24,000 nucleotides of DNA, taken from Dehalococcoidia bacterium. GTDB taxonomy: Bacteria > Chloroflexota > Dehalococcoidia > E44-bin15. Numbering within the stretch: the stretch's first letter is position 1; the number at the start of each line of letters is the position of its first letter. The stretch lies in assembly GCA_030610655.1 (NCBI GenBank), contig JAUWRG010000005.1:1-24000 (forward strand), given 5' to 3'. The position numbers were made by a program, and so were the translations under genes. Shown here piece after piece: positions 2,784 to 22,935 of the stretch. The notes beneath the pieces are model-generated. The model was not told the DNA's origin, made no database searches, and saw only the letters and a program-made list of their open reading frames with translations.

Positions 2784-3084
2784 ATGGAAACTAAATTTGA
2801 TCCTCAGAAAACTGCCCTCTTGGTTTTCGATATTTTGCAATACCGACCTCGACCTCTTTCTGCGCACTCGTGGCATCGATACCTTAATAGTGGGCGGCGT
2901 GGTTACCAACGGCTGCGTGGAGAATACCATTCGGGGTGACCGTGAAAGGGATTACCATGTTATTGTGCCAAGTGGTTGCTGCGCTGCCGTAGTAGCTCAG
3001 GCCCACGATCATGCCATTAACAACGTTTTCCCTGGCCTTGGGAGGGTGAGAGCCTCAGACGAGGTTCTGGAAGTAATGAGGTAA
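2784..3084 (+). pseudogene. Isochorismatase/cysteine-hydrolase family gene with an internal deletion and frameshift
   Basis: The ATG at 2784 (RBS ggagtga) encodes METKFDPQKTALLVFDILQ, the family N-terminus with the ALLV-D motif. That frame then terminates. The +1 frame (ORF 2797-3084) encodes the family C-terminus NTDLDLFLRTRGIDTLIVGGVVTNGCVENT...VIVPSGCCAA. Roughly 90-100 central codons, including the region of the catalytic Lys, are missing. Confidence 0.7.
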
Positions 3085-3120
3085 ACCAATAAGGTCGACT
3101 GCTGCACCACTGCTGAATGT

Positions 3121-3151
3121 AAGGTGCGAGGCATTCTCGGCCTCGCACCTT
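3121..3151 (+). terminator. Strong hairpin downstream of the pseudogene
   Basis: aaggtgcgaggc (3121-3132) pairs perfectly with gcctcgcacctt (3140-3151) across a 7-nt loop. There is no clear U-tract afterwards. Confidence 0.4.
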
Positions 3152-3292
3152 CTTATCGCTTGTGGTATCTTCGTCGCCTGCTCTTTTGTGCCTCATGCCC
3201 TTGACACACCTTTACCGCAATCTCCCTCATGTACTCAGTATACCCGTAGTTTAAAAACTGTATAGTATGTCTTGGACACCGCACACCCCCTG

Positions 3293-3322
3293 ATTGAGTC
3301 GCCTGTGTAGCTCATGTATAAT
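3293..3322 (+). promoter_or_regulatory. Putative sigma70-type promoter for radA-larE-larC
   Basis: ttgagt (3293-3298), an 18-nt spacer, then tataat (3317-3322) preceded by tg (extended -10). It lies 33 nt upstream of the radA start. Confidence 0.45.
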
Positions 3323-3354
3323 ACGGTAAACCGCTTGAGGAAAGAGAGGCCACT

Positions 3355-4740
3355 TTGGAAAAGGGTCGCCGCACGGTCTTCATCTGCCAGCAATGTGGCC
3401 GCGAGAGCATAAAATGGTTGGGCCGCTGCCCTGACTGCGAGGGCTGGAATACCTTTGTGGAGACTGTGGTTCGCCCACCAAATAGCCGTCGCAGCACCTC
3501 ACGCGTCCTATCAACTGCCCCTCAAGAGCTCTCTCAGGTCTCCGGTGAGCAGACCCCCCGCCTGACTCTATCCTTCGCTGAATGCAATCGCGTCCTAGGA
3601 GGAGGAGTCGTGCCTGGTTCACTGGTGCTTATCGGCGGTGACCCGGGAATCGGAAAATCAACGCTCCTTCTTCAGGTGTCCGCCGCGGTCGCCCAAGGTG
3701 GTAGGAAGGTGCTCTATGTTACCGGCGAGGAGTCGCCTACGCAGGTAAAGCTGAGGGCGAATCGCCTGGGACTGGGAGGCGAGTGGCTCTTCATCCTGCC
3801 CGAGACGAACATGGAGGTCATCCTAGAGCAGCTCGAGGAAGCATCCCCTGACATGGTTGTCATCGATTCTATTCAAACGGTCTACCTTGACCAGTTAGAC
3901 TCAGCGCCAGGGAGTGTGGGGCAAATCCGTGAGTGCACCATGAAGCTGATGCAATGGGCAAAAAACGCTAATGTGCCTGTTCTGCTTTCAGGGCATGTCA
4001 CCAAGGATGGAGCCATCGCCGGGCCAAGGGTCCTGGAGCACATCGTCGACGCCGTGCTCTATTTGGAGGGCGAGCAATTTAGTGCCTACAGGCTGCTTAG
4101 AAGTGTGAAGAACCGTTTCGGTTCCACCAACGAGGTGGGAATCTTTGAGATGAGGGGGAACGGTCTGGTGGAGGTGCCTAACCCATCCGAGGCTTTCCTC
4201 TCACAGCGGCCTAAAGAAACGGTGGGCTCCGCTGTAGTGCCCACACTGGAGGGAACTAGGCCACTTCTGGTGGAAATTCAAGCGCTCACCAGCACTACCA
4301 GCTTCGGCTTTCCCCGACGCACCGCTAACGGCGTGGACTTCAATCGCCTACTTCTAATCACCGCGGTGCTTACCAAGCGAGCCGGCCTCGCTCTGGGAAA
4401 TCAGGATATTATGGTCAATGTGGTTGGCGGGCTCAGGGTGAATGAGCCTGCCGCCGATCTTGGCATCGCGCTTGCCATCGCTTCCAGCCTGCGTGGCGCC
4501 GCTATAGACCCCAATCTGGTTGCCATCGGGGAGTTGGGACTCAGCGGTGAGCTGCGAGCGGTGCCCCACATAGATAGGAGACTCAGCGAGGCAGCGAAAT
4601 TGGGGTTTAAGCGCTGCCTCGTCCCAAAGGCTACCAAGGAAATCGCCCCCCAACAAATGCAGCTCATCGGCGCAGAGTCGGTTAGAGAAGCGTTACGAAA
4701 GGCGCTAACTAAGGGTGGAGACAAAGCTGATTCAACTTAA
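3355..4740 (+). CDS. radA: DNA repair protein RadA/Sms
   Basis: 461 aa. It has an N-terminal zinc finger (CQQCG...CPDCEGW), the Walker A motif GDPGIGKST, the KNRFG motif and a Lon-protease-like C-terminal domain. The start codon is TTG, with the purine-rich RBS gaggaaagagagg upstream. Confidence 0.92.
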   Translation: MEKGRRTVFICQQCGRESIKWLGRCPDCEGWNTFVETVVRPPNSRRSTSRVLSTAPQELSQVSGEQTPRLTLSFAECNRVLGGGVVPGSLVLIGGDPGIGKSTLLLQVSAAVAQGGRKVLYVTGEESPTQVKLRANRLGLGGEWLFILPETNMEVILEQLEEASPDMVVIDSIQTVYLDQLDSAPGSVGQIRECTMKLMQWAKNANVPVLLSGHVTKDGAIAGPRVLEHIVDAVLYLEGEQFSAYRLLRSVKNRFGSTNEVGIFEMRGNGLVEVPNPSEAFLSQRPKETVGSAVVPTLEGTRPLLVEIQALTSTTSFGFPRRTANGVDFNRLLLITAVLTKRAGLALGNQDIMVNVVGGLRVNEPAADLGIALAIASSLRGAAIDPNLVAIGELGLSGELRAVPHIDRRLSEAAKLGFKRCLVPKATKEIAPQQMQLIGAESVREALRKALTKGGDKADST

Positions 4741-5506
4741 GTCCTTATTAAACGGGCTGGGCTCGGTGGTCATTGCCTACTCTGGAGGCGTCGACAGTAC
4801 CCTGCTTGCTTCGGTTGCCAATGAAATCCTCGGCGAGAGAGCGCTGGCGGTTACCGCTTCCTCACCCATTCACCCCACTTCTGAGACCGCTAAGGCCTGG
4901 TCTTTAGCTCGCCAACTGGGAATTCGCCATATCACAATTGAGACCAGTGAGATGGACAACCCATTGTTTGTAGCTAATGACCCACAGCGCTGTTACTACT
5001 GTAAGCGAGGACTTTTCGCGCAATTAAACCACATCGCTGACAAGGATGGCGCATCCTTCGTGATCGATGGCACAAACTACGATGACCTGCAAGACTTTCG
5101 CCCGGGGAGAAAGGCGGCTGAGGAGTTCGGGGTCATAAGTCCCCTTTCCGAGGTAGTCCTCACCAAGGCAGATATTCGCTCTATTTCCCAAAATAGGGGG
5201 ATTCCCAATTGGGATAAACCCTCCTTGCCCTGCCTAGCCACCCGCTTTCCACATGGCACCCCGATCACAGTTGAACTTTTGGCTCGTATCGCCAACGCTG
5301 AGCAATCCCTTACCAAGCTAGGGCTTTCTCAGTTTCGGGTGCGCCATCACGGCCCCATTGCCCGCATCGAGGTCAGCAATGGAGACTTGGCACTTTTTGC
5401 CGACGACAAAATGCGGCTTCTTGCAGTGGAGGAGCTCCGTGCCCTGGGCTACAGTTATGTTACTCTTGATCTTGCGGGCTACCGCCCTGGGGGAAGAGCC
5501 TCTTGA
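4715..5506 (+). CDS. larE: ATP-dependent sacrificial sulfur transferase LarE (PP-loop ATP pyrophosphatase)
   Basis: 263 aa. It carries the PP-loop YSGGVDST, an LPCLATRFPHG motif with the conserved Cys, and a VTLDLAGYR C-terminus, and it is collinear with LarE. The GTG start overlaps the radA 3' end. Confidence 0.8.
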   Translation: METKLIQLKSLLNGLGSVVIAYSGGVDSTLLASVANEILGERALAVTASSPIHPTSETAKAWSLARQLGIRHITIETSEMDNPLFVANDPQRCYYCKRGLFAQLNHIADKDGASFVIDGTNYDDLQDFRPGRKAAEEFGVISPLSEVVLTKADIRSISQNRGIPNWDKPSLPCLATRFPHGTPITVELLARIANAEQSLTKLGLSQFRVRHHGPIARIEVSNGDLALFADDKMRLLAVEELRALGYSYVTLDLAGYRPGGRAS

Positions 5507-10894: not shown

Positions 10895-11446
10895 TCAGAC
10901 CTCCAAGCAACCGAGATAATAGAAGCCTGGAAAATCTGCAGGAATGGTTAAGCTCTTGATATGAAGAGGAGAAAACTTCCTATTAAACCTATTAACTCCA
11001 TCTGTCCAGTCATCCATGCCACCATTTGCCGTGGTTAGAATTAAAAGGAATTTATTGCCTTCTACGATTTCGTTCAATTTTTCAACATCTGGTTTAATCC
11101 CTACCGAGCTTGGGTCCCCAAAATAGAATTGCGCATTATATTTATATCCTTTTTGATACCCTATTAGCCAATGTTTCAATTCGATCCATGCTGTTAATGC
11201 ACCGGACCCCGTTGGCACTTCAACCTTGAAATCAACCTTCCTTTTTCCCACGCCAAATGAGACTTCTCGGTCAAAGTTAGCTAAACTGCCCGCGGCTTTT
11301 TCATCGTCTAACAAGGATAGAAACTCTCCCTTCATCCAGCCTTCCACTTGCACTCCATACTTGCAAAAACAATTTAGATGTTTTTCCCTGGAGTCCAAAA
11401 CCGCTTTAAATCGAGAAACCAAGTCCAAGATAGCGTGATCGGTCAT
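10895..11446 (-). CDS. Orphan PD-(D/E)xK nuclease-fold protein of unknown family
   Basis: 183 aa. The motif order is E ([10 protein letters not shown]), D (RKVDFKVEV), ExK (AWIELKHW), which is the canonical restriction-endonuclease-like core. The gene is AT-richer than its flanks. Its stop lies 16 nt upstream of the leuD start. Confidence 0.55.
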
Positions 11447-11454
11447 TTCTCACC

Positions 11455-11512
11455 TCCCCCAGCCCCGCGAGGCGTCCCAGTATGGCGCTGGCGGCGGCCA
11501 CCAAGCTGCAAA
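11455..11512 (-). repeat. Degenerate copy 3 of the leuC 3' coding end (cassette boundary)
   Basis: On the minus strand it encodes ...[18 protein letters not shown], against the leuC C-terminus [19 protein letters not shown]. By hand alignment, 11473-11498 matches 14400-14425 at 22 of 26 nt. Confidence 0.75.
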
Positions 11513-11537
11513 GTCCTTGTGGGACAAAATGGCTTTT

Positions 11538-11741
11538 TCATTTGAGAATGACAGAGAGCGGTTTTTGTTCCTCTAATGCGCTCACCTTTAGGATGGAAAA
11601 GCCAATGATGTTTCCTTCCTCGTCAACCTTTTCCATTACCGCATCGTTTCCTGTCTCTCTAAAGTAACCTGTTTTTCGCTCAAACATGACTTCAAGATAG
11701 TCTCCTTCTTTGTCGAACCAAACCTTTATTTCCTTTCCCAT
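11538..11741 (-). CDS. DUF2283-family protein (putative antitoxin partner)
   Basis: 67 aa. VWFDKEGDYLEVMF...DEEGNIIGFSILKVS matches the YDxExDxLYI...GxIxGIEI pattern of DUF2283. It overlaps the upstream gene by 16 nt. Confidence 0.7.
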   Translation of the reverse strand: MGKEIKVWFDKEGDYLEVMFERKTGYFRETGNDAVMEKVDEEGNIIGFSILKVSALEEQKPLSVILK

Positions 11742-12040
11742 AGTATTTCGCCTCCCTTTATTGTGTCTGTAAAATACGCCGTAATAATGAACAAATCATC
11801 ATCCAATAATTTAACTACCACACATAGATATTTCTCAGCTATAAGCGTGGCACTGTAATACCGATAAAACAGTTCAACTTGCGGGTCTATTCTAGATCTA
11901 ACAATTATATCAGGATTCAATAAGGTATTCTCTATTTTATCGATCTGCCCGAACATTTCTGGATGGTCAGCCTCAATATGCTCTCGTCTTTCATTTGTTA
12001 ATCGAATTCGGCGGCCATGGATGTCTTTAAACCATTTCAT
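11726..12040 (-). CDS. Putative toxin, DUF4258-like / barnase-RelE-like small nuclease
   Basis: 104 aa. I recognise the pattern (LTNERREHIEADHPEM...NPDIIV...CVVVK...FIITAYFT). The family assignment rests mainly on the pairing with DUF2283. Confidence 0.45.
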   Translation of the reverse strand: MKWFKDIHGRRIRLTNERREHIEADHPEMFGQIDKIENTLLNPDIIVRSRIDPQVELFYRYYSATLIAEKYLCVVVKLLDDDLFIITAYFTDTIKGGEILWERK

Positions 12041-12043
12041 TTA

Positions 12044-12097
12044 TCTCTCCGCCTCCTCCTCCGGCCCCCCCCGATCCGCCCCAAGATGGCGCTGGCC
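12044..12097 (-). repeat. Degenerate copy 2 of the leuC 3' coding end (cassette boundary)
   Basis: On the minus strand it encodes (M)[17 protein letters not shown], against leu[19 protein letters not shown]. 12067-12095 matches 14391-14419 at 23 of 29 nt. The GGAGG-rich tail doubles as the RBS of the next gene. Confidence 0.75.
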
Positions 12098-12101
12098 ATA
12101 A

Positions 12102-12323
12102 CTATAACAATTTCTCGAAATCTTCTGGAGAGAGTCCTGCTTGCCTCAGGATGTTACTAAGTGTGCCAAGCGGTATTATTCTACGACCATGAAAAGGGAC
12201 AACAACTCGCCTTCCCTCCTTGATATAGGAGCGATGACCCCCTTTAGCATGTGAAAACTGAAATCCTACTCTTAATAATGCGCTCTCCATCTCCCGAGCT
12301 GCGACTCTGGGCAGCCTTTTCAT
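12102..12323 (-). CDS. hicA: HicA-family mRNA interferase toxin
   Basis: 73 aa. It shows the YcfA/HicA pattern (LLRVGFQFSHAKGGHRSYIK...VVVPFHG). An ATGA overlap couples it to the upstream hicB. Confidence 0.8.
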   Translation of the reverse strand: MKRLPRVAAREMESALLRVGFQFSHAKGGHRSYIKEGRRVVVPFHGRRIIPLGTLSNILRQAGLSPEDFEKLL

Positions 12324-12562
12324 AGAGCTATGCCCACCTTCTCTAAAGAAGGAGGCATGTCCTCAGGTATAGGCTCATTGTGAATTTTTAGGTCCTCCAA
12401 GTAGCAAAGGATAGCCTCCTTAATGTTCTCTAATGCTTCTTCCTTAGTAGCTCCATAGCTGAAACACCCAGGGAGTGCGGGAACAGAAGCATTATAATAA
12501 CCCTCGAACTCTGGATCGGTTTCCTGCTCCAAGACAACAGTATAGCTATATTCTTTGACCAT
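12320..12562 (-). CDS. hicB: HicB-family antitoxin (UPF0150, short form without a DNA-binding domain)
   Basis: 80 aa. YTVVLEQE...GYYNASVPALPGCFSYGATKEEALENIKEAI is typical of the HicB N-terminal domain. Confidence 0.8.
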   Translation of the reverse strand: MVKEYSYTVVLEQETDPEFEGYYNASVPALPGCFSYGATKEEALENIKEAILCYLEDLKIHNEPIPEDMPPSLEKVGIAL

Positions 12563-12604
12563 AACACCTCCCCTTTATATCTATATCATATATCTCCTCA
12601 TGAA

Positions 12605-12665
12605 CCACTTCCTCCGCCCCAATATTGCGCTGCCAGCGATCACCTGCTCTGTGAGGTAGACACTT
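12605..12665 (-). repeat. Degenerate copy 1 of the leuC 3' coding end (cassette boundary)
   Basis: On the minus strand it encodes SVYLTEQVIAGSAILGRRKW, against leu[22 protein letters not shown]. The 16-nt core ccccaatattgcgctg (12617-12632) is identical to 14402-14417, and aggtagac (12654-12661) equals 14442-14449, with a 3-nt indel between the two blocks. Confidence 0.75.
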
Positions 12666-12680
12666 GGTTGAGGCTGTCCT

Positions 12681-14282
12681 TCAGGACTTAAAAACGTCTC
12701 TGATTCTGCGATTCAGACCACCACCAATCTTCTCAATGGCTTCACACCTAATTCGGGTAAGTTCTTTCTGTTTCTCCTCAAATTCGGCTGTCGAATAGAG
12801 CTTCTCTGGATGCATGTAGACTTCATCCACCGTCCTAATTGCCTTGGGCACTTTGAAGCCGGTAGGCGAATCCACCCAATCCTCGAGACCCCCTCTCAAC
12901 AAAGAGTCCAATATCCCCATCGTATGTTCTAACCTTATATCCTTGTATTGAGCCTCTTCACCCACGCCTCCTGTATTGAGTAGGTAGTATTTCACATGAG
13001 GAAGGCCCCTCAAGATTTCAATAAACCTGTTGGCGTGCTGTGCTTTATTGCCAGCTATAAATGGATCATAGAAAAACTCGCTCCTTATCCTCCCTGCCTG
13101 GGTTGGGTCACCCGCTGACGACTCCACTGCCTGTCCCAGAACCATCAAGGCTGCTGCTTGACTGCGAGTCAACTTAGATATCGCTGGGATCAATGGCCCT
13201 CTGGTTATGAGGATGAGGTTATCAATCCGATCAACATCGATGTACGGGCTGGCATGCAGGAAATCCCTTCGCCGTATGGTCGCTCTCCCATTCGACGTCC
13301 TGGTGAAGTTATAGAAATCGTAGTCACCGTCGTCGGTGACAAAAACGTTTTCGCACAGCGTATCTGGTTTCAACAAACCGTAGAACACCGCGGTTTGCTC
13401 TCCTGGATTCACGCCCTCTGTTTTCGCATAGATCCCTCCCAACTCAAAGCCGTGGAAAGAACCATCTGGCATGAGCGCTCCACCATCGTCCTGAATAAGC
13501 CAGGACCTTTCCCTTTCCTTCTTTGCCATGATGCGACAGGTTGTGGTTGTCTTGCCGTTGGCGCTCAACGCGACAAGCAGCGTTCTGACAGTTCGATAGT
13601 CGCCGTGGACTGATTGAAGGTAGTCCTCCCTACAACCGGCATGCAAGAAGATCCCACCTCTCCTGGTTTTGACGTTCCAATCCTCCGCTGCGAAAACCCC
13701 CTTCTTGTATTCACCTACGTAGTTACTGTTCCTGACGATCTTGATCACCCTTCCATCGTCCAGCATTGCCAATCTTATGGTGATATCCTTTTGGGAAAGC
13801 GGCTTTGCCCGGTTGGCTTCAAAGGCCTCGTCGGTGAAGAATATGATCTGATATATTGGTGACTTGACTTTCCTATTCACTGGCAGATAAAGATTCCCGC
13901 CACCGTAGGCGAGATGAGCAAATCTCACTGGAACAATCATTCTAACCACTGTTTCACTGCTTTCGTTGCCCACGATCCTATCAACGGAAATCAACTTCTC
14001 CCTGGCAAGCGCCTTTTCACACCGGGAAAGCAGTCGCCTTCCCTCCTCGCCGAAAGTATGGTCAACGCTGTTCTTGGTAAACATCGCCGCTCTCGATGTG
14101 GGCTCGCTTTCAGCAGCAAAATTGCCATATATCGTCTTTCTGATACCAGGCTCGATCTCCGTCAATGTCCTAAGCTCCGCATCAGAGGGATTGTCGACTA
14201 ACCTGTTCTCTTCTATAGCCTTTTTCCTGATTCTATCAACAGTTCTGGCGTATTCTTCTAGGTCAAACCCGTTTGGCATCAC
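12681..14282 (-). CDS. Divergent ATP-dependent phosphoenolpyruvate carboxykinase-family protein
   Basis: 533 aa, collinear with PckA motifs: GEYKKG (GEMKKG in PckA), FLHAGC (MHCSAN), ALSANGKTTTT (GLSGTGKTTLS), LIQDDGG (LIGDDEHGW), FELGGIYAKT (FNFEGGCYAKT), NGRATI (NTRVSY), LLNTGGVG (LVNTGWNG). The likely start is the ATG at 14279, one codon inside the GTG at 14282. Confidence 0.65.
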   Translation of the reverse strand: MMPNGFDLEEYARTVDRIRKKAIEENRLVDNPSDAELRTLTEIEPGIRKTIYGNFAAESEPTSRAAMFTKNSVDHTFGEEGRRLLSRCEKALAREKLISVDRIVGNESSETVVRMIVPVRFAHLAYGGGNLYLPVNRKVKSPIYQIIFFTDEAFEANRAKPLSQKDITIRLAMLDDGRVIKIVRNSNYVGEYKKGVFAAEDWNVKTRRGGIFLHAGCREDYLQSVHGDYRTVRTLLVALSANGKTTTTCRIMAKKERERSWLIQDDGGALMPDGSFHGFELGGIYAKTEGVNPGEQTAVFYGLLKPDTLCENVFVTDDGDYDFYNFTRTSNGRATIRRRDFLHASPYIDVDRIDNLILITRGPLIPAISKLTRSQAAALMVLGQAVESSAGDPTQAGRIRSEFFYDPFIAGNKAQHANRFIEILRGLPHVKYYLLNTGGVGEEAQYKDIRLEHTMGILDSLLRGGLEDWVDSPTGFKVPKAIRTVDEVYMHPEKLYSTAEFEEKQKELTRIRCEAIEKIGGGLNRRIRDVFKS

Positions 14283-14362
14283 AGCCTCCCCTTTCTCTCC
14301 ATTCCCCCACAGAGTTCCTTAAGCAGTGGCATATCAAATCTTCCCTGCACGACGCAATACTT

Positions 14363-15634
14363 TCAACCCTCACGTACTACTCCTTCTGGACTACCAATCC
14401 TCCCCAATATTGCGCTGGCGGCGGCAACTGCTGGATTTGCCAGGTAGACTTCTGACTGAGGACTGCCCATGCGGCCAACGAAGTTGCGGTTGGTGGTTGA
14501 GATGCATCTTTCACCCGCTGCGAGGACCCCCATATGTCCACCGAGGCAGGGACCACAAGTGGGCGTGCTCACCGCTGCCCCCGCCCGGATGAAGGTTTCG
14601 ATCAGGCCGCGGCGCATAGCCTCCAGATACACCTCTTGAGAGCCAGGGATGATGATCAAGCGCACCTCAGGGTGAACCTTTCTCCATTTAAGCACCTCGG
14701 CGGCCATCTCCAGGTCCTCGATGCGGCCGTTGGTGCAACTGCCGATCACCACCTGGTCGATCTTCACCTCACCAACCTCGGTTATGGGCCTGGTATTCGA
14801 TGGCAGGTGGGGAAAGGCAACCTGAGGCTCGATCTTGGAGACATCATATTCGATGACTTTTTCATAATAGGCATCTTCATCGGGTTCGTACACCGTGTAG
14901 GGACGCCCGGCACGAGCCTGAATATAAGCCAATGTCTTCTTATCGACCCTAAAGATGCCTGCCTTGGCGCCAGCCTCGATAGCCATGTTTGCCATAGTGA
15001 AGCGACTACTCATAGGCAGAGACTCGATGGCCTCTCCGCAAAGCTCCATTGCGGCATACAGTGCTCCGTCGACGCCGATGTCGCCGATAGTATAAAGAAT
15101 AAGGTCTTTGCCGCTGACCCACTTTTTCGTCCTGCCGTGATAGATGAACTTGATAGTAGGAGGAACTTTCATCCAAGTCTCGCCTGTTGCCATGGCGCAG
15201 GCGATATCGGTCGAGCCCATTCCTGTGGCGAAGGCTCCCAGAGCGCCATAGGTGCAGGTATGGGAATCAGCAGCCACGACCACATCGCCAGGTAACACCA
15301 GCCCCTGCTCCGGCAGAAGCACATGCTCGATGCCGCCTCTACCTACCTCAAAGTAGACCAATCCCTGCTCCCTGGCGAACTCCTTCATCATCTTCGCCTG
15401 CTCCGCTGAGGGGATGTCCTTATTAGGGACAAAATGATCGGCGACCATCACCACCCTCTGGGGGTCAAAGACTTCAGAGACACCGATACGCTCAAACTCG
15501 TTGATGGCGATGGGGGCGGTAACATCATTTGCCATAACGAGGTCAACCCTGACATTTAGGAACTCGCCAGGGCTGACCTTCTTTTTCCCACAATGAGCAG
15601 CAAGTATCTTCTCAGCTATCGTTGATCCTGTCAC
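14363..15634 (-). CDS. leuC: 3-isopropylmalate dehydratase large subunit
   Basis: 423 aa of the aconitase family ([30 protein letters not shown]). The GTG start overlaps the mgtC stop (gtga). The C-terminus is ...[20 protein letters not shown]. Confidence 0.92.
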
Positions 15635-16460: not shown

Positions 16461-16500
16461 TTTTTCTTCTCTATGTTACTCCGAAAATAGATTTATGAGG

Positions 16501-16591
16501 GCTGAGGGAGTCCTCTCCCTCAGCTTTTCCGTGAAGGAAGGATTCCTTCACGCCTCAGACTATTTTCATGATTCGTTGGTGGGCTGCCGCC
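16501..16591 (-). repeat. Intercistronic repeat element with two tandem perfect hairpins
   Basis: Hairpin A is ctgagggag (16502-16510) paired with ctccctcag (16515-16523). Hairpin B is gtgaaggaa (16531-16539) paired with ttccttcac (16543-16551). catgattcgttggtgggc (16568-16585) is the exact reverse complement of 6701-6718. The element is flanked by tatgagg at 16494-16500 and 16592-16598. Confidence 0.6.
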
Positions 16592-16613
16592 TATGAGGAT
16601 ATGCTATCTGCTA

Positions 16614-16748
16614 CTAGATGATAAGCACCACCAGGACCAATATCAAGGCGATGAAGCTGATACTCAAGCTCATTATGATCAACACCAGCAGCAACTTGCC
16701 AGTGCGCTCCATGCCAGTAAGCCGCTGCTCAATCTTCTCCTCGTCCAT
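16614..16748 (-). CDS. Small single-pass membrane protein (44 aa, below the ORF-track cutoff)
   Basis: The minus-strand ATG at 16748 lies 7 nt downstream of the leuA stop codon, with the RBS aggggg. It translates to MDEEKIEQRLTGMERTGKLLLVLIIMSLSISFIALILVLVVLII, a charged head followed by one clean TM helix. Confidence 0.4.
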   Translation of the reverse strand: MDEEKIEQRLTGMERTGKLLLVLIIMSLSISFIALILVLVVLII

Positions 16749-16757
16749 TCAAACCCC

Positions 16758-18275
16758 CTACTCTTTGCCTTTCGCCGCCAAGAGCCGGTTGAGGGCGTTC
16801 ATATAGGCTTTGGCGCTGGCGACCAGGATGTCAGTGGATGCACCCCGACCAATGTAGGTTCGGCCCTCGCTCTCGATCTTTATGGTCACCTCGCCGATGG
16901 CATCGATACCCTCGGTAATCGATTTGACGCTGAACTCAGTGAGTGTATTGGGCACCTGCACCAAGCGGTTGATCGCTTTGTAGACGGCGTCCACTGGTCC
17001 CGCTCCCAGGGCGGCATCAGCGATAACCTGCCCATCGGGAGCAACGAGCTTGACCGTGGCCGTAGACACGGTGTGATCGCCACAGGAAACCTGCACCTGC
17101 TCCAGGTGGTAGGTCTCCGACACGGTGCGCAACTCCTCGGCAACTAGGGCCTCCAAGTCAGGATCGGTGACTTCCTTCTTCTTATCGGCCAGCTCCTTGA
17201 AAGCGGCGAAGGCGCGGGCAAAATCCTCTTCGCTAAGAGTGCAACCCAGTTCCTCCAGTTTCTGGCGAAATGCATGACGCCCCGAGGTCTTCCCTAATAC
17301 GATCCTGCTTTCGCCGACCCCGATGCTCTTAGGAGTCATAATTTCGTAGGTGGTTCTCTCCTTGAGCATACCATCTTGGTGCAAGCCCGAAGCATGAGCG
17401 AAGGCATTGGCCCCCACAATCGCCTTATTGGGCGGCACCTCCATGCCCATATAGTGGCTCACCAGTCGACTAGTCCTATAGATCTGGGCGGTGTCAACCT
17501 TGGTAGCCAGGTGGAAGAAATCGCTACGGGTTTTGAGAGCCATCACGATCTCTTCTAGGGCAGCATTGCCGGCTCGCTCACCCACACCGTTGATAGTGCA
17601 TTCCACCTGGCGCGCTCCGCACTGGATAGCACGCAGCGAATTGGCCACCGCCTGACCCAGATCATCGTGGCAGTGTACAGATAGGGTGACCTTCTCAATC
17701 CCGGGCACATTGTTGCGTACATACTCAATTAAGGCACCGAATTCGTCGGGTTGGACATAGCCCACGGTGTCGGGAATATTAACCACGGTGGCTCCGGCTT
17801 CTATCGTCGCCGCCAGCACCTGGCAAAGGTAATCCCAGTCGCTGCGAGTAGCATCCATCGCTGAGAACTCGACCGCACTACAATAACGCTTAGCATACCT
17901 CACCGCCTCAACAGCTAACTCGAGTGCCTGTTCACGGCTGATGTGCAACTGGTGTTCGAGGTGAATATCGGAGGTGGACAGGACAACATGGAGAAGGGGA
18001 GCCTCTGCCTCCTTTAGTGCATTCCATGTTGAGTCGATCTGCTCCTGCTTTATGCCGGAGAGCGCCGCAATCTGGCAGTCCCGCAGTTCCCGCGCCAGAA
18101 GCTGCACCGCAGCAAAGTCCCCCGGTGAGGTGTGGGGAAAACCAGCCTCGATGATATCCACCCCCAACCTCTGGAGCTGATGACCGATCTCGTGCTTCTC
18201 TTCAAGGGTCAATGCTCCCCCAGCAGCCTGCTCTCCGTCTCTCAGTGTGGTGTCGAAGATAATCACACGTTCCAT
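16758..18275 (-). CDS. leuA: 2-isopropylmalate synthase
   Basis: 505 aa. It has IFDTTLRDGEQ, HCHDDLGQAVANSLRAI and a C-terminal LeuA regulatory domain. Confidence 0.9.
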   Translation of the reverse strand: MERVIIFDTTLRDGEQAAGGALTLEEKHEIGHQLQRLGVDIIEAGFPHTSPGDFAAVQLLARELRDCQIAALSGIKQEQIDSTWNALKEAEAPLLHVVLSTSDIHLEHQLHISREQALELAVEAVRYAKRYCSAVEFSAMDATRSDWDYLCQVLAATIEAGATVVNIPDTVGYVQPDEFGALIEYVRNNVPGIEKVTLSVHCHDDLGQAVANSLRAIQCGARQVECTINGVGERAGNAALEEIVMALKTRSDFFHLATKVDTAQIYRTSRLVSHYMGMEVPPNKAIVGANAFAHASGLHQDGMLKERTTYEIMTPKSIGVGESRIVLGKTSGRHAFRQKLEELGCTLSEEDFARAFAAFKELADKKKEVTDPDLEALVAEELRTVSETYHLEQVQVSCGDHTVSTATVKLVAPDGQVIADAALGAGPVDAVYKAINRLVQVPNTLTEFSVKSITEGIDAIGEVTIKIESEGRTYIGRGASTDILVASAKAYMNALNRLLAAKGKE

Positions 18276-18667
18276 TTTTCGCCCTCCTGGCGGTCGGGTG
18301 TTGCCCCCTCAATAAGACTAAGGAGCTCACCCACTGCTTTCCTTATGTCCTCGGCGTAAATGTTAATCTCCTCCATACTCAGTCCAGCCTCATAGAAGTT
18401 ACTACGTAAATAACTGGCATGTCCATAGGCATCGAAGATGCTTTTGTTTCCAAGCTCCTTTGCTAGCTCTTTGGCAAATTCTGTAATTTCCCAGTGCGCT
18501 GCAAGCTTTATACCTCTGCTCGCAGCCACTGCTTTCAACGCCTCAGCCATGCTTCCCCAGAGGAACTCTCCTGCCTTCTCAGGGTCGCCTGCTTCTACGT
18601 AATTGAAGGCATTATCCAGATAGTGAATGCTTTGGGCTTTATACTTCTCAGCGCTCTCGTTTGTCAC
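18263..18667 (-). CDS. PaREP1-like (HEPN-superfamily-like) helical protein
   Basis: 134 aa. AEKYKAQSIHYLDNAFNYVEAGDPEKAGEFLWGSMAEALKAVAASRGIKLAAHWEI matches the PaREP1 pattern (EKxWGAxAxAxKAxAxxxGxxLxSH) and contains R-x6-H. An ATGA overlap couples it to the upstream 76-aa ORF. Its last 13 nt overlap the leuA start. Confidence 0.5.
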   Translation of the reverse strand: MTNESAEKYKAQSIHYLDNAFNYVEAGDPEKAGEFLWGSMAEALKAVAASRGIKLAAHWEITEFAKELAKELGNKSIFDAYGHASYLRSNFYEAGLSMEEINIYAEDIRKAVGELLSLIEGATPDRQEGEKWNV

Positions 18668-18894
18668 CGTGTTACATACTCCAAAATGGCCTCTGTGTTT
18701 GCGTCTATTTTTACTTGGGCTATCTTAGTTTCGAACAATCCGACATCGATTTCCACGAGCCAAACATCACCCTCCCTGACAACCTTAATCGGCCTCAAAG
18801 TGAAAAGTGTCGGAGAGAAATACTTGCAAAGATAGGACCGAGCTATCTCGGTAGCTTCTTCGGCGGATTTTACTTCTGCTGGCATATTTCCCAC
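18664..18894 (-). CDS. Small hypothetical protein, partner of the PaREP1-like gene
   Basis: 76 aa from the GTG at 18894. The ATG at 18885 (MPAEVK..., 73 aa) is better placed behind the RBS aggagg. I recognised no family. Confidence 0.5.
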   Translation of the reverse strand: MGNMPAEVKSAEEATEIARSYLCKYFSPTLFTLRPIKVVREGDVWLVEIDVGLFETKIAQVKIDANTEAILEYVTR

Positions 18895-18915: not shown

Positions 18916-18958
18916 TCAAGCCTTCAGCCAGGGCATCATCTCCCTGAGCCCTTTGCCC
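18916..18958 (-). repeat. Relic copy of the ilvC 3' coding end
   Basis: On the minus strand it encodes [13 protein letters not shown]-stop, against the ilvC end [13 protein letters not shown]-stop. 18916-18958 aligns with 19233-19275 at a constant offset of 317 nt and 36 of 43 identities. This includes an identical 24-nt core (18926-18949 = 19243-19266) and aligned stop codons. Confidence 0.8.
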
Positions 18959-18972
18959 CTTAATTTCACCCT

Positions 18973-19236
18973 TCAGTGTCTTCCATATTTAAGCTTTGCG
19001 TATAGAAGCATGGCGACAAAGGTCGCCCCCACCGCATTCCACAGGATGACAGGGAACAACTGGAATACTATCCCACAGCCTAACCAGCAAAGCACACCAG
19101 TAAGGAGTAAAAGGGTAAATGGCAGGCTTATCTCACGGGCGCTCTTAAGCCTGAATAGCTTGACCACCTGTGGCACATAGGCCACTGTCACCAATGCTCC
19201 TCCGATAAAGCCAAAGCGAATACCCTTCCTCATCAC
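18973..19236 (-). CDS. SemiSWEET / PQ-loop family small transporter
   Basis: 87 aa with three hydrophobic helices and the PQ-loop motif [18 protein letters not shown]. The start is GTG at 19236 or ATG at 19233, and either overlaps the ilvC stop (gtgatg). Confidence 0.72.
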
Positions 19237-20225
19237 TTCTTGAGCCAGGGCATCATCTCCCTGAGCTTCTTGCCCACCTCCTCAATCTCATGCGCCGCTT
19301 CTCTTCGCCGGTAGGCGTTGAAGCTGGGGCGGCCCGCCTGGTTCTCCAGAATCCACTCACGGGCGAAGGTGCCGTCCTGAATCTCTGACAGGATCTGCTC
19401 CATCTCTTCCCTCACAAACGCATCAATGACCCTCGGCCCCCTGGAGTAATCACCGTATTCCGCAGTATCGCTCACCGAATAGCGCATATAGGCAAAACCA
19501 CCCTGGTATATGAGGTCAACGATGAGCTTTAGCTCATGGCACACCTCGAAATAGGCGATCTCAGGCTGATACCCAGCCTCTACCAGGGTTTCAAAAGCCG
19601 TCTTTATCAGGGAAGTGATGCCGCCGCAGAGCACCACCTGCTCCCCGAAGAGGTCAGTCTCGGTCTCCTCCTCGAAGGTAGTCTCCAGAACTCCTGCTCT
19701 GGTGCAGCCGATACCCTTTGCATAGGCCAGGGCCTTTTCCTTAGCCTTGCCCGAAGCGTCCTGATGCACGGCGACAAGCGCCGGAGCGCAAGAGCCCTCG
19801 GTATAAAGTTGGCGCAGCATATGGCCAGGGCACTTAGGCGCTATCATGGTCACATCAATATCAGGCGGTGGCAGTATCTGATTGTAGTGGATGTTGAATC
19901 CGTGAGCAAACATCAGCATATTACCCTTAGTGAGCCCCTTCTCAATAGAGCTATAGTATACCTGGCGGTGGAGCTGGTCTGGGACAAGCATCACGATAAC
20001 ATCGGAGGCCTTCGCCACCTCATCGGCGGTCATCACCTTAAGCCCAGCCTCGACGGCTGCCGCCCAGGGCTCGCTACCCTCAAGCTCGCCAACCATGACC
20101 TGGCAGCCGCTCTCCTTCAGGTTCAAGGCATGGGCATGCCCCTGGCTACCGAAGCCGATTATGCCGATGGTCTTGCCCTCGAGTAAACTTATGTCCACGT
20201 CACTATCATAATAGATCTTAGCCAT
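19233..20225 (-). CDS. ilvC: Ketol-acid reductoisomerase (class I)
   Basis: 330 aa with the Rossmann motif [19 protein letters not shown] and collinear KARI motifs ([20 protein letters not shown]). Confidence 0.95.
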
Positions 20226-20240
20226 AGCTCTCTCCTTCGA

Positions 20241-20915
20241 TTATTTGCCGATTTTCCCTTTTGCCAACAAGGCTTCTGGGTTATAAAGGTCTTTATTGCC
20301 CGCATTAAACTCGTGCTTGACCTGCACAAGGAGCTTATCAAGAGTGTATATCTCCCAAGCTAGGGGAACAAATGCCATCCCCCCTTTTCTAATTTCTTGG
20401 GCAAGTTGAAAGCTCACTACAAGATGATAAGCATTAGCTGTTATTTTAGGATCGAGGGAAGGGGAGAAATAGAAACTTCTGAAAGTTGTTTCTTTTACCT
20501 CTATATTATAAGTTTTGCAATCTAGATATACTATTCGCCCCTCATCGTCAATTTTGATGTCTGGATAGCCTACTGCCTTTCTCTTTCCGTTTTTTGTTTC
20601 GGGTTTCTCTGCCCTTAATCCAACTTCATTAAGAGCCTCGATAACAAAGGGCTCTATGCGGTTCCCCGCTTCGTTTGGCCTCCTTGCAAATATACCCTCT
20701 ATGTATGCGCTCTCACCAGCTATTTGTGCAGCCCTTATGAGTTTCTTAAGAAGCTCTTCAGTCTCTGGCGCTTCTTTATCAAAAGCAATGACTTCATAGC
20801 CTGTTAGCGCCTTTATTGCAATTGGGAATGGTATGCCTTTTATTGGCTCGAGAAACTTAGCAATTGTTGTCTCTAGGCTCTTGATGTAGTCTTCATTTTC
20901 CACTTTCGTAGCCAC
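20241..20915 (-). CDS. Type II restriction endonuclease candidate (PD-(D/E)xK)
   Basis: 224 aa. GYPDIKIDDEGRIVYLDCKTY gives PD...D-x-K with normal spacing. It is the last gene of an AT-rich three-gene unit with a DNA methyltransferase. The start is GTG and overlaps the 72-aa ORF by 23 nt. Confidence 0.65.
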   Translation of the reverse strand: MATKVENEDYIKSLETTIAKFLEPIKGIPFPIAIKALTGYEVIAFDKEAPETEELLKKLIRAAQIAGESAYIEGIFARRPNEAGNRIEPFVIEALNEVGLRAEKPETKNGKRKAVGYPDIKIDDEGRIVYLDCKTYNIEVKETTFRSFYFSPSLDPKITANAYHLVVSFQLAQEIRKGGMAFVPLAWEIYTLDKLLVQVKHEFNAGNKDLYNPEALLAKGKIGK

Positions 20916-21111
20916 CCTTGGTCAACTTTTCAATAAGGCCATTTATAGCATCTTCGCTCTCCCGAATTAGAGAACTCAAAAGGCTACATCGCTCGGATAT
21001 GTCTTTAGGAAGATATTTGTCTGGGAAAGTTTGAAGCAGTTCGCCAGTCTCTAGGTCACATAGGTTTACCCAACCATCTTCAACTCTCAGTATATGACCT
21101 TCTAATTTCAT
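20893..21111 (-). CDS. Small hypothetical protein bridging the methyltransferase and endonuclease genes
   Basis: 72 aa. It fills the gap between the M and R genes and overlaps both (32 nt and 23 nt). I saw no recognisable HTH, so it is not an obvious C-protein. Confidence 0.45.
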   Translation of the reverse strand: MKLEGHILRVEDGWVNLCDLETGELLQTFPDKYLPKDISERCSLLSSLIRESEDAINGLIEKLTKGGYESGK

Positions 21112-22366
21112 TATTCGCTCCTTTCTGGAAAATCAGGATATTTTCCCTTCGCATTACGTTGTAAAGCCCGAAGATAATCTTGTCGATGTTCCTAACAAGG
21201 TGGAAGCCTAGCTTTTGGCAATGGTCAATAGTGAATCCAACAGTGTCTAACTCTTCACCGTAAAGTGTGGCATTTCCTATTACAATAACGCAAAATTTCC
21301 TTGGTTTAAGCACACGGTGCATCTCTTTAAGACTTTCTCTCAAGTCTTCATTATACAATCGAACTTTGGTTGAGCCCGTTCCGCGAACACCTATAAATTT
21401 CTCCCTCAATTCTGGTAGATCGTAACCTAGTGCCTTCAAAGCATGAGCATCATTTGAAATATAGTCCAAAGCGATGGAGTATGGGGGGGAGGTTATGATC
21501 CCGTCAACGCTTTTGTCTCCGATAGTCAACTGCCTTGCGTCACCGAGTTTGATGTCGACCCTTCCCAAATCAAGGTTAAGCTTTTGTGAAACGTCTTGGT
21601 AGTCCTTGATAGAAGCGAGCATAAGCTCACTATTCTTCAGAAAAGAGCCAAAAAACTCCTTCCTTCTTCTAGCTTTGTCGCTGTGCGCTATAAGTTCGGC
21701 CATTTTATAGAAGTTCCTGACTTTTTCATTAGGGATAGAATCAATCGTCTCGGAAAGATTGTAACCTTCAGGGTTAAACAAGCCGGGACGCATTTTGTTA
21801 AATACATCCTCTTTACACCCTTCTATTTCTTGAATAGCTTCTATTGCCTCTGTTTTAACCCTGCTCTGCAAAACACAAAGTGGAGAGACCTCTATTCCTA
21901 TGCAATTGATGCCCAGAAGCTGAGCCTCTACCGCAGCAGTCCCACTGCCTATGAATGGGTCAAGCATTGTATCACCCTTCTTGAGACCTATGATATTCAA
22001 AAGAGCCCTTATCATCTGAGGGTGGAACTTGCCTTTGTAGGGATATATCCAATGGGTCAAGTATTGATTCACAGAGCGAGTCCTGTTCTCTTGAATAAGG
22101 TTAAAGTAGTCGGTATAGTAAGCGTTCACCACCCTGAAATAGGCAAGCCTCTTTATTAACGTATCAACATCAGGTGCGTCCAGAAGTTTGAATTCCCGCA
22201 AGCTATTGGTGATCTCACATTTTGCACCAAGAGCCTCCAACTCGAACTGAGCCAATGCTAATTCATAAATGAATTGGACATTGTTTAGCAGCACAAGTTG
22301 AGAGCTATCGCTAGGGACGCTTTTCTCATAGGCCCACAAGGTTTTTTGTTCCTTGATTTTCGCCAT
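21080..22366 (-). CDS. DNA methyltransferase (amino-methyltransferase, SPPY motif: N4-cytosine or N6-adenine)
   Basis: 428 aa. Motif I is LDPFIGSGTAAVEAQLLG and motif IV is DGIITSPPYSIALDY about 150 aa downstream. The RBS aaggag overlaps the ilvN stop codon. Confidence 0.8.
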   Translation of the reverse strand: MAKIKEQKTLWAYEKSVPSDSSQLVLLNNVQFIYELALAQFELEALGAKCEITNSLREFKLLDAPDVDTLIKRLAYFRVVNAYYTDYFNLIQENRTRSVNQYLTHWIYPYKGKFHPQMIRALLNIIGLKKGDTMLDPFIGSGTAAVEAQLLGINCIGIEVSPLCVLQSRVKTEAIEAIQEIEGCKEDVFNKMRPGLFNPEGYNLSETIDSIPNEKVRNFYKMAELIAHSDKARRRKEFFGSFLKNSELMLASIKDYQDVSQKLNLDLGRVDIKLGDARQLTIGDKSVDGIITSPPYSIALDYISNDAHALKALGYDLPELREKFIGVRGTGSTKVRLYNEDLRESLKEMHRVLKPRKFCVIVIGNATLYGEELDTVGFTIDHCQKLGFHLVRNIDKIIFGLYNVMRRENILIFQKGANNEIRRSYTES

Positions 22367-22374
22367 TAAGCTCC

Positions 22375-22935
22375 TTATAAATTAGATATTTCTTCAGCGC
22401 CTTTGACCCTTTTGGGGCGGGCTCTCTTGGGCTTCTCCTCCACCACAATGGGACCCCCTGCTCCCCTCGCCATGGCTATTCTCCCGGTGCGGGCGACCTC
22501 CCGGATACCAAAGCCCTTAAGCAAGCGAAACAGGGAATCGACTTTATCCTCATCTCCAGTGACCTCGACCATCATAGAATCGGAGGCAACATCCACGATG
22601 TTTGCCCTGAAGATGTCCACAATTTGCAGGATCTCGCTCCTTGTGGCTGAGGTGCTCTTCACCTTGAATAAGGCAAGCTCCCGAGCCACTAGACCGTCTT
22701 CGGTGATGTCGGTAACCTTGACCACATCGATGAGTTTATCGAGCTGCTTTCTGACCTGCTCCACTGAGGTAGCAGTGCCATCAACTACGATGGTCATCCT
22801 CGATAGCCCCGGAGTCTCGCTATGCCCCACGGCGATGCTCTCGATATTAAAACCCCTTCTACGGAAAAGGCTAGCTACCCGGTTCAACACTCCAGGTCTG
22901 TCTTCCACTAATGCTATTAGGCTGTGCTTGGCCAT
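22375..22935 (-). CDS. ilvN: Acetolactate synthase small (regulatory) subunit
   Basis: 186 aa with the ACT domain LIALVEDRPGVLNRVASLFRRRGFNIESIAVG and an AHAS small-subunit C-terminal domain. The start overlaps the ilvB stop (taatg). Confidence 0.92.
   Translation of the reverse strand: MAKHSLIALVEDRPGVLNRVASLFRRRGFNIESIAVGHSETPGLSRMTIVVDGTATSVEQVRKQLDKLIDVVKVTDITEDGLVARELALFKVKSTSATRSEILQIVDIFRANIVDVASDSMMVEVTGDEDKVDSLFRLLKGFGIREVARTGRIAMARGAGGPIVVEEKPKRARPKRVKGAEEISNL

Follow-up and report, generated by a model that had tools for sequence, protein, structure and literature searches.

A displaced ilvC coding end behind a SemiSWEET gene in a Dehalococcoidia operon and its probable origin in recombination at gene ends

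How did the last codons of ilvC, a housekeeping gene of branched-chain amino-acid synthesis, come to stand a second time behind a small SemiSWEET gene in the DNA of a Dehalococcoidia bacterium? We studied this question in a stretch of 24,000 nucleotides (contig JAUWRG010000005.1; ENA contig ERZ4220937 NODE_149, 50.5 kb; hereafter the window), in which two copies of the ilvC 3′ end enclose one gene of the SemiSWEET/PQ-loop family. All coordinates are those of the whole 24-kb window, and the genes and repeats discussed read on its minus strand. Numbers from L001 to L153 denote contigs of relatives that cover the ilv-leu region and are metagenomic or belong to metagenome-assembled genomes (MAGs). 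With a probability of roughly 60%, we regard the repeat as the scar of a gene end that was displaced by homologous recombination at conserved gene ends.

Two copies of a gene end

The elements on which the argument turns are the following:
19233..19275, minus strand: functional ilvC 3′ end (copy 1), with its core at 19243-19266 and its stop codon at 19233-19235
18916..18958, minus strand: relic ilvC 3′ end (copy 2), core at 18926-18949, stop codon at 18916-18918
18973..19236, minus strand: SemiSWEET/PQ-loop gene of 87 aa, promoterless, its start overlapping the ilvC stop
19233..20225, minus strand: ilvC, ketol-acid reductoisomerase of 330 aa (Pfam KARI_N and KARI_C)

On the minus strand, the functional end (19275-19233) reads GGGCAAGAAGCTCAGGGAGATGATGCCCTGGCTCAAGAAGTGA and the relic (18958-18916) reads GGGCAAAGGGCTCAGGGAGATGATGCCCTGGCTGAAGGCTTGA. 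The two are identical at 36 of 43 positions, start 317 nt apart and are both in frame, each terminating in TGA. Their perfect 24-nt core, GCTCAGGGAGATGATGCCCTGGCT, has exactly two sites in the window (18926-18949 and 19243-19266) and no third one there, even with up to 3 mismatches allowed. None of 100 dinucleotide-preserving shuffles matched the core, and none is expected by chance. The pair was also recovered by blastn-short (E=1e-8) and by a repeat search of the window, which reported 80% identity over 50 nt. Within the core lies a small dyad, CAGGG-N8-CCCTG.

The sole open reading frame (ORF) between the copies, at 18973-19236, is that of the SemiSWEET gene, whose GTG/ATG start overlaps the ilvC TGA. 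An initial annotation, made from the sequence alone, had described both the repeat with its aligned stops and this single-gene filling, and our searches bear it out on either point. Three independent assemblies from different samples (L001-L003) show an identical arrangement, so the architecture is not an assembly artefact; apart from the window, contigs of two other samples carry the same ilvC protein and gene order.

The 87-aa product matches the Pfam PQ-loop family PF04193 with E=2.9e-9 (37 bits, the curated cut-off being 22). Among sequences of solved structures in the PDB it matches SemiSWEET 4rng (E=6e-15, the alignment spanning residues 8-87 of the 94-aa chain), followed by 5uhs, 4qnc and 9kax (about E=1e-11). 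Compared with the contigs L084 (1282-1340) and L153 (8194-8260), the window gene lacks 19 nt between two TTTGGCTT repeats (~19190-19232). This difference replaces the usual N-terminus (M/L-x-x-Q-E-V-FGF) and shifts the start codon onto the ilvC stop.

The window holds a second case of the same kind. As the initial annotation had stated, the core of the leuC end (14402-14428) recurs at three downstream sites, near 12617-12643, 12071-12097 and 11476-11501. The array is made up as follows:
14363..14440, minus strand: functional leuC 3′ end, the reference for the relics
12611..12661, minus strand: leuC-end relic 1, after a PEPCK-like gene (12681-14282); shared by L005, where it is more decayed
12037..12097, minus strand: leuC-end relic 2, after HicB/HicA (12102-12562); encodes ASAILGRIG
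11445..11501, minus strand: leuC-end relic 3, after the PBECR2-like and DUF2283 genes (11538-12040) and before a 183-aa ORF (10895-11446)

Each relic of this array (10895-14440) uses different synonymous codons for ..ASAILGR... At relic 2, the stop codon and the start codon of the PBECR2-like gene share bases in an ATGA, a native operon junction. Contig L005 has only the first unit, that is the PEPCK-like gene with relic 1, and different cargo beyond it. A homologue of the 183-aa ORF lies directly 3′ of leuC in L029.

At both genes, the copies diverge in the manner of coding sequences. The ilvC relic differs from the true end by 7 nt but by only 2 aa (p=0.003 with seven random substitutions), and both changed codons are naturally variable positions. 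For leuC, the 5 substitutions that separate relic 2 from the true end are without exception synonymous (p=7e-4), and relic 3 differs by 10 nt and 2 aa (p=8e-4). The ilvC relic is closer to the true ilvC ends of L122 and L100 than to the end of the window's own gene, and the best match of leuC relics 2 and 3 is the leuC end of L012. Since the differences are biased towards synonymous ones and the relics better match true ends of other lineages, we read the copies, on this sequence evidence, as ends of distinct, once-functional alleles, each relic having presumably ended a working gene.

Relatives with and without the cassette

A scan of one genome per GTDB species yielded 80 ilvC loci. The order ilvBN-ilvC-leuA-leuC-leuD-leuB-cimA is kept across Dehalococcoidia, with variable intergenic spaces. 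On the contigs of the closest relatives, L004 (ilvC 95% identical) and L005 (92%), ilvN abuts ilvC, which has a single end and no SemiSWEET gene behind it. The space between ilvC and leuA is filled differently in each of L006-L011 (nothing, a spacer of 190-233 nt, an HNH-like ORF, a zinc-finger-like ORF, or orf76 with a PaREP1 gene). Homology among the relatives breaks at the ilvC stop codon and restarts ~30 nt ahead of the leuA ATG, and the spacers of relatives lacking SemiSWEET contain no remnants of it.

The initial annotation had foreseen relatives in which ilvC lacks the SemiSWEET gene and ends in an LKA-type tail. The first part is confirmed by L004 and L005, whose single ends agree with the relic being the scar of an insertion that brought its own ilvC end. 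The second part is only weakly matched: L004 ends in ..GAAGGCTAA and the relic in ..GAAGGCTTGA, and overall the relic is closer to the true ilvC ends of other lineages than to those of the nearest relatives.

The window ilvC is ~95% identical to that of L004 at the nucleotide level until ~50 nt before the stop, where it switches to another allele type. Sliding identity, calculated also against L084, revealed that L004 and L005 share the alternative type. On grounds of parsimony, the final ~50 nt of ilvC entered the window lineage along with the cassette. No tract of lowered identity was seen at the leuA 5′ end compared with L005, so the right edge of the import cannot be placed in leuA. Within the gene body, another tract of ~80 nt (ilvC nt 745-830, ~19396-19481) is 70-80% identical to L004 and 87-93% identical to L084. 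It looks like a short gene conversion, which would make ilvC a mosaic.

Replacements elsewhere respect the same boundaries. L123 and L124, ~97% identical, differ by a 190-nt spacer versus orf76 with PaREP1, swapped exactly between the relic stop and the leuA ATG. Breakpoints likewise coincide with conserved coding ends between L089 and L104 and in the spacers of L004-L011. The L123 spacer (1770-1958; its counterpart in L124 is 2945-3611) is rich in palindromes. L008, L035, L122 and L124 all have an orf76-PaREP1 pair behind ilvC, with identities of only 40-54%. One contig, L014 (SOKA01000043.1), terminates exactly inside the ilvC 3′ end, and the repeated gene end may have caused this assembly break. 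One extra relic match, at position 513 of L014, was put down to chance, as it is located within an oxidoreductase gene and in a different frame.

The SemiSWEET protein has 485 homologues at E<1e-3. Where identity is at least 67%, the gene stands immediately after ilvC in every fetched context that reaches upstream; remoter homologues (up to 65%) are located elsewhere and have no relic, with the exception of L127 (58%), which is still placed after ilvC. SemiSWEET lies directly 3′ of ilvC in all 40 ilvC-linked loci, and most of them carry a downstream relic. The initial annotation had proposed a search for further SemiSWEET genes beside 3′-end duplications. The yield depends on the method: a strict protein motif scan for ilvC-end relics returned the window species only, looser nucleotide patterns found more, and when C-terminal peptides were used in a translated search, the longest relics alone came up.

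In most lineages the relic is shorter (..AGAGATGATGCCCTGGCTGAAGGGCTAG) and contains the SemiSWEET stop codon, which is reflected in the typical SemiSWEET C-terminus, ..YGRQR-stop. A longer form, adding ..GGCAARRGGCTCAGG, occurs in the window, L084 and L153. The 37 different downstream sequences fall into three groups: 8 have an uninterrupted MM.W..stop frame, 22 can still be recognised in spite of 1-nt deletions, a 19-nt deletion or a lost stop, and 7 fail the strict pattern. The conservation of the relic does not exceed that of neighbouring non-coding DNA, no Rfam family matches in the window, and folding of the relic region is weak (z=-1.7, a stability reached or exceeded by 10 of 200 shuffles). 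For these reasons the relic is a decaying scar and not a maintained element. What follows it differs from genome to genome: leuA, orf76 with PaREP1, Mrr with NYN, or a terminator-like region.

The main SemiSWEET clade (L021, L091-L121) has no leuA after ilvC. About 30-150 nt past the relic, these contigs have a conserved hairpin-like segment (..GCTTGCTACTGACACACTACTGCGAGC..) with apparently compensating variants, followed by an A/T-rich stretch with a TATAAT-like end. Together they may form a candidate terminator plus promoter.

Pairwise identities of ilvC and SemiSWEET are strongly correlated (r=0.89, 27 distinct loci). As the two genes co-diverge, the unit of SemiSWEET and relic is old in Dehalococcoidia and has been inherited mostly vertically. 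The picture of a recent local event therefore does not hold.

Two outliers depart from this pattern. Between the window and L084, third-codon identity is 0.93 in SemiSWEET and 0.69 in ilvC (z=3.1; Fisher p=3.5e-5). From the core to the end of the relic, the two sequences agree at 322 of 344 positions, as opposed to 66 of 82 in ilvC just upstream (p=7e-4). Between L089 and the main clade the values are ~0.80 for SemiSWEET and 0.44 for ilvC. The raised identity in both pairs stops at the stop codon of the relic, and the sequences downstream are genome-specific. This indicates lateral transfer of the cassette, bounded by the repeats, and acquisition or re-acquisition of the unit by the window lineage from outside. 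The initial annotation had named universal conservation as evidence against integration. Our data come close to such conservation, but the patchy distribution and the two outliers keep mobility alive.

A permutation test for concerted evolution of the true end and the relic gave p=1e-4, a value of little weight because gapped local alignments favour each locus's own pair. By eye, the two covary only in the window, L084, L153 and L089.

Other gene ends and the cargo between them

We compared the last 60 nt of 1,074 long ORFs (152 loci, 1.43 Mb) with the 3 kb downstream by seed-and-extend. This gave 17 matches, which amount to ~5 independent events after removal of redundancy. Five control geometries produced 1 to 4 matches each, none of the gene-end-relic type, and exact 16-mers agree with this result. 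Three independent gene-end duplications come from other Chloroflexota MAGs:
L061, 897-919 and 2224-2246: ilvC-end copies; cargo, an HsdR_N/RAMA protein
L013, 10093-10130 and 10307-10344: cimA-end copies; cargo, a 44-aa membrane ORF
L042, 3847-3868 and ~4803-4824, minus strand: holA-like-end copies, 22 nt perfect; cargo, a LuxR-type regulator and a 212-aa ORF, both on the opposite strand

The ilvC end of L061 recurs 1.3 kb downstream with 23 nt perfect, reading MMSWLKKQQK-stop versus MMSWLKKGK-stop. Within the window itself, insertions follow ilvN and leuA too, yet neither 3′ end has left a relic there.

The sites at ilvC, leuC, cimA and holA share no motif, and the common recombination motif that the initial annotation had proposed to look for at the ilvC and leuC repeat boundaries was not found. 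The left boundaries of ilvC relics lie at about -43 (window type), -27 (main clade) and -33 (L061), and the leuC relics are unequal in extent. Pfam scans found no recombinase or transposase among the genes of the window, and no tyrosine recombinase in particular. Ten larger slot ORFs of other species gave Mrr-like, DarT-Macro, ATL/MGMT-like, GIY-YIG, Usp, SAM methyltransferase and IS200-type transposase matches; neither in these ten nor in the window, all of the ilv-leu region, was an integrase or relaxase detected. The proposal of a general mechanism at gene 3′ ends therefore stands in part. Recurrence at leuC (three relics), cimA, a holA-like gene and ilvC with other cargo supports it, but dedicated targeting machinery is not borne out, given no recombinase, no motif, variable junctions and a mirrored case at a 5′ end.

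This mirrored case lies at the start of ilvC, where a ribosome-binding site (RBS) and the first codons occur twice:
22355..22377, minus strand: left copy, made up of the ilvN stop, an RBS and ATGGCGAAAATC (MAKI), now the start of a DNA methyltransferase
20214..20239, minus strand: right copy, made up of the native ilvC RBS and ATGGCTAAGATC (MAKI); L004 and L005 have this sequence once, unchanged

The MAKI starts of the methyltransferase and of ilvC differ by synonymous changes. Homologous methyltransferases have other, longer N-termini ahead of a conserved KEQ..FWAY block, and L153 carries the same fusion of methyltransferase and MAKI. This suggests that the cargo was joined within the first codons of an ilvC allele, a complete ilvC start being retained to its right; the relic 5′ end looks as if it had been reused as the translation start of the cargo.

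The operon as a whole is broken up by 14 accessory genes in five slots. It begins with ilvB and ilvN, followed by the methyltransferase (N4/N6 type), a 72-aa ORF and a MjaV-like endonuclease, and then ilvC. SemiSWEET and the ilvC-end relic come next, with a 73-76-aa ORF and a PaREP1-family gene before leuA. A 44-aa ORF, a DUF3795 gene and an MgtC gene separate leuA from leuC. Behind leuC stand the PEPCK-like gene, a relic, HicB and HicA, a relic, the PBECR2-like and DUF2283 genes, a relic and the 183-aa ORF, before leuD, leuB and cimA close the operon. Other genes of the window are ClpB-like, an isochorismatase fragment, RadA-like, a PP-loop protein, LarC-like and a nitroreductase. The cargo next to the two ilvC ends is:
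18263..18894, minus strand: cargo of the next slot, the 73-76-aa ORF (18664-18894) and the PaREP1-family gene (18263-18667)
20241..22366, minus strand: restriction-modification cargo between ilvN and ilvC, absent from L004 and L005; N4/N6 methyltransferase (21080-22366), 72-aa ORF and MjaV-like endonuclease (20241-20915)

Some details of these regions deserve mention. On L153 (6531-7191) the MjaV-like endonuclease is split into ORFs of 171 and 44 aa while the methyltransferase is intact, so that the restriction gene seems to be in decay there. The hydrophobic 44-aa ORF (MDEEKIEQRL..; 16614-16748, minus strand), directly after leuA, is conserved in L005. Two GC-rich hairpins, GTGAAGGAATCCTTCCTTCAC and GCTGAGGGAGAGGACTCCCTCAGC, precede the DUF3795 gene (16461-16613). 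A 95-aa ORF at 2797-3084 on the plus strand matches only C-terminal positions 96-173 of the 175 in the isochorismatase domain, and is probably a truncated gene or one with a mis-set start. Inside leuB of L057 (15667-15882) there is a direct duplication with an offset of 155 nt, 43 nt of it perfect, which is either a genuine tandem duplication or an assembly artefact.

How the repeat may have formed

The pathway, the direction and the order of events are what we infer from these comparisons. Incoming DNA would have carried the last ~45-50 nt of an ilvC allele, the promoterless SemiSWEET gene and a downstream copy of the ilvC end. It would have recombined into the resident ilvC through the highly conserved coding sequence for ..LR.MMPWL.., so that ilvC was kept intact with one tail copy, and a second, non-functional copy came to lie after the cargo, directly ahead of whatever first followed ilvC. 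More generally, a relic would arise when DNA made of a gene end plus cargo joins upstream of the resident stop, and it would from then on provide the right-hand homology arm wherever that gene end is conserved.

The enzyme would be the general homologous recombination of the cell, acting on short tracts; a dedicated integrase would not be required, and the first duplication possibly began with one illegitimate join. From then on, the two ends could act as a portable homology arm, by which the unit would be copied into relatives with a conserved ilvC end or cleanly deleted. Only short repeats would be expected to persist, long ones deleting the cargo.

We favour general recombination over a site-specific system because the breakpoints lie at gene ends, the junctions vary and no motif is shared, and also because no recombinase was found, a 5′ mirror case exists and ilvC appears mosaic.

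Several points weigh against this reconstruction. The scan yielded ~5 independent 3′-end relics and no comparable 5′-end relic, an asymmetry which is what 3′-targeting integrases produce; the single 5′ case, noticed by eye, is short (12 coding nt plus the RBS). On the left, the edges of imported tract and repeat lie within ~10 nt of each other, a coincidence for which a repeat-bounded unit (such as a circle or an att-like exchange) accounts at least as well as a random short tract of homologous recombination. In the window, L084 and L153, the two copies of a locus have states in common that are particular to their lineage (the codon ahead of MMPW and, in L153, a GGGGGAT tail), so extra gene conversion or repeated excision and integration would be needed. 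Judging from E. coli, efficient RecA recombination on 24-43 nt is marginal. No empty-site polymorphism or recombination intermediate was found within one population, the three contigs with the exact window ilvC all carrying the cassette.

The main rival, unlikely as we consider it, is site-specific integration by a recombinase encoded elsewhere. The repeats would then be attL and attR, the units reduced remnants resembling cis-mobilizable elements (CIMEs) or microCIMEs, and the leuC array a product of tandem accretion, the parent elements having targeted the 3′ ends of ilvC, leuC, cimA and holA. Elements at the 3′ ends of streptococcal fda, rpsI and rpmG have this architecture (PMC7563491). 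The 3′-end bias of the relics, the dyad in the ilvC core, identity that is confined to the cassette and bounded by repeats, an imported tract that meets the repeat boundary, and the states common to both copies in the window, L084 and L153 are all in its favour. However, no integrase or relaxase accompanies the units in the regions scanned, the relics at ilvC and leuC begin at different places, the four target genes have no motif in common, and the mirrored 5′ case does not fit. In addition, the fit of the cargo is exact to the nucleotide, the SemiSWEET stop falling within the relic in most lineages, and this would be hard to obtain by decay from a larger element.

We think it quite improbable that a single ancient insertion was inherited purely vertically ever since, with nothing mobile today and the patchiness resulting from repeated loss via the direct repeats. 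The co-divergence of ilvC and SemiSWEET, the decay of most relics and the constant adjacency of the two genes at 67% identity or more would be expected under this scenario, and repeat-mediated deletion would leave a clean end such as those in L004-L011. Yet SemiSWEET is far more alike than the adjacent ilvC in both outlier pairs (z~3), the window ilvC switches allele ~50 nt before its stop relative to L004 and L005, and at least four or five independent losses would be required among L004-L010.

It is very improbable that the second copy is retained because it works, be it as an RNA with a regulatory role, in termination or processing, or in the translational coupling of the downstream gene. 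The relic can still be made out in lineages that share only ~70% identity in SemiSWEET, and a conserved hairpin-like and promoter-like stretch follows it in the main clade. Nevertheless, no Rfam family matches in the window, and the relic folds only weakly, carries deletions and lost stops, is conserved no better than its non-coding neighbours and precedes different genes in different genomes.

Finally, an in-situ duplication of the resident ilvC end (a long target-site or tandem duplication) with one copy decaying neutrally could account for direct repeats around an insert and for the states shared by the copies of L153 and L084, but it is hardly credible, as the copies are ends of different functional alleles: their differences are synonymous-biased and limited to naturally variable codons, the relics match the gene ends of other lineages better, the boundaries of identity vary by genome, and there is no transposase in the window.

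Displacement of gene ends by homologous recombination has partial counterparts in known systems, though the literature yielded nothing specific on a linkage of SemiSWEET with ilvC or on gene-end relic arrays in Dehalococcoidia. PMC13617665, in discussing toxin-antitoxin islets and citing Mazzamurro et al. 2025, describes small islets as lacking mobile-element genes and spreading by homologous recombination in flanking core genes. As portrayed there, islets resemble our units in having one to three cargo genes between core genes, mostly toxin-antitoxin, restriction and nuclease genes, in being patchy among close relatives and in their breaks of homology at core-gene boundaries. We likewise found breakpoints at conserved coding ends, and a cargo history that is discordant in the window-L084 and L089 pairs. 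Unlike the islets of that account, the slots described here lie within one essential biosynthetic operon, and several insertions carry a copy of the upstream gene's coding end, that is a built-in homology arm, and form tandem relic arrays.

The CIMEs and microCIMEs of Streptococcus are decayed integrative elements that have kept their att sites, located at the 3′ ends of fda, rpsI, rpmG and rplL. They form tandem arrays and have no recombination genes, the CIMEs being gene-poor and 1.2-13 kb long, the microCIMEs gene-less and 130-220 bp long (PMC7563491). Direct repeats of housekeeping 3′ ends around gene-poor units without a recombinase are common to both systems, as are tandem arrays. At ilvC and leuC we see the flanking repeats but not a constant att core or crossover, and no integrase-bearing relative or recombinase remnant was present in the window and the ten slot ORFs of the ilv-leu region. 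Also unlike the streptococcal elements, the repeats here vary in extent and have a 5′ mirror case, and a unit may consist of a single ORF with an exact fit between the repeats.

A further parallel is offered by orphan rhs-CT/rhsI and cdiA-CT/cdiI modules, which lie downstream of full-length toxin genes (PMC3967940). There, too, a main gene is followed by tandem start-less 3′ fragments, each with its own small gene, and homologous recombination takes place between the main gene and a fragment (PMC3967940). The three leuC relics and the ilvC relic (followed by orf76) each precede cargo in the same way. Yet the Rhs and CdiA ends are polymorphic toxin domains under diversifying selection with 522 bp of homology, whereas the ends found here are conserved housekeeping tails of 25-60 nt, C-termini of enzymes, and the cargo (SemiSWEET, PEPCK-like, HicAB and others) is unrelated to the gene.

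Integron cassettes are similar in being promoterless, mostly single-ORF, co-oriented units that are arrayed, transcribed from upstream and accompanied by a recombination-site-like repeat. They differ in having IntI, attI and attC-type imperfect palindromes, none of which is seen here: the would-be sites are coding ends of host genes, the relic region folds weakly, and the ilvC and leuC relics have no motif in common.

Foreign DNA can be inserted by way of a one-sided homologous anchor in a conserved gene and a non-homologous join, at which recipient sequence may be duplicated or deleted. Such homology-facilitated illegitimate recombination was reportedly described in naturally transformable bacteria by de Vries and Wackernagel in 2002 and by Prudhomme et al. 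in 2002. It is a candidate for the founding event only, since later spread appears to involve homology on two sides.

The strict linkage of one SemiSWEET clade to ilvC suggests, as far as sequence can tell, a pathway-related substrate; to our knowledge, the bacterial substrates of this transporter family are mostly unknown. A displaced coding end with coding-type differences is a signature of gene addition inside an essential operon in streamlined, uncultured bacteria. Cargo placed there, including restriction-modification and toxin-antitoxin pairs, gains expression and is hard to lose. The signature can be searched for genome-wide, which would allow events to be counted, dated by the decay of the relics and examined for the involvement of a recombinase.

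A more tentative idea, to which we attach little confidence for now, is that Dehalococcoidia harbour promoterless gene-end cassettes of one or two genes that use housekeeping coding ends as their attachment sequence. If so, such cassettes would home into the respective gene of any genome and depend on read-through from the core operon for their expression; they would also accumulate in arrays and be capable of excision. They would form an integron-like system whose att sites are the ends of essential genes, run by host recombination or by an unrecognised trans-acting recombinase.

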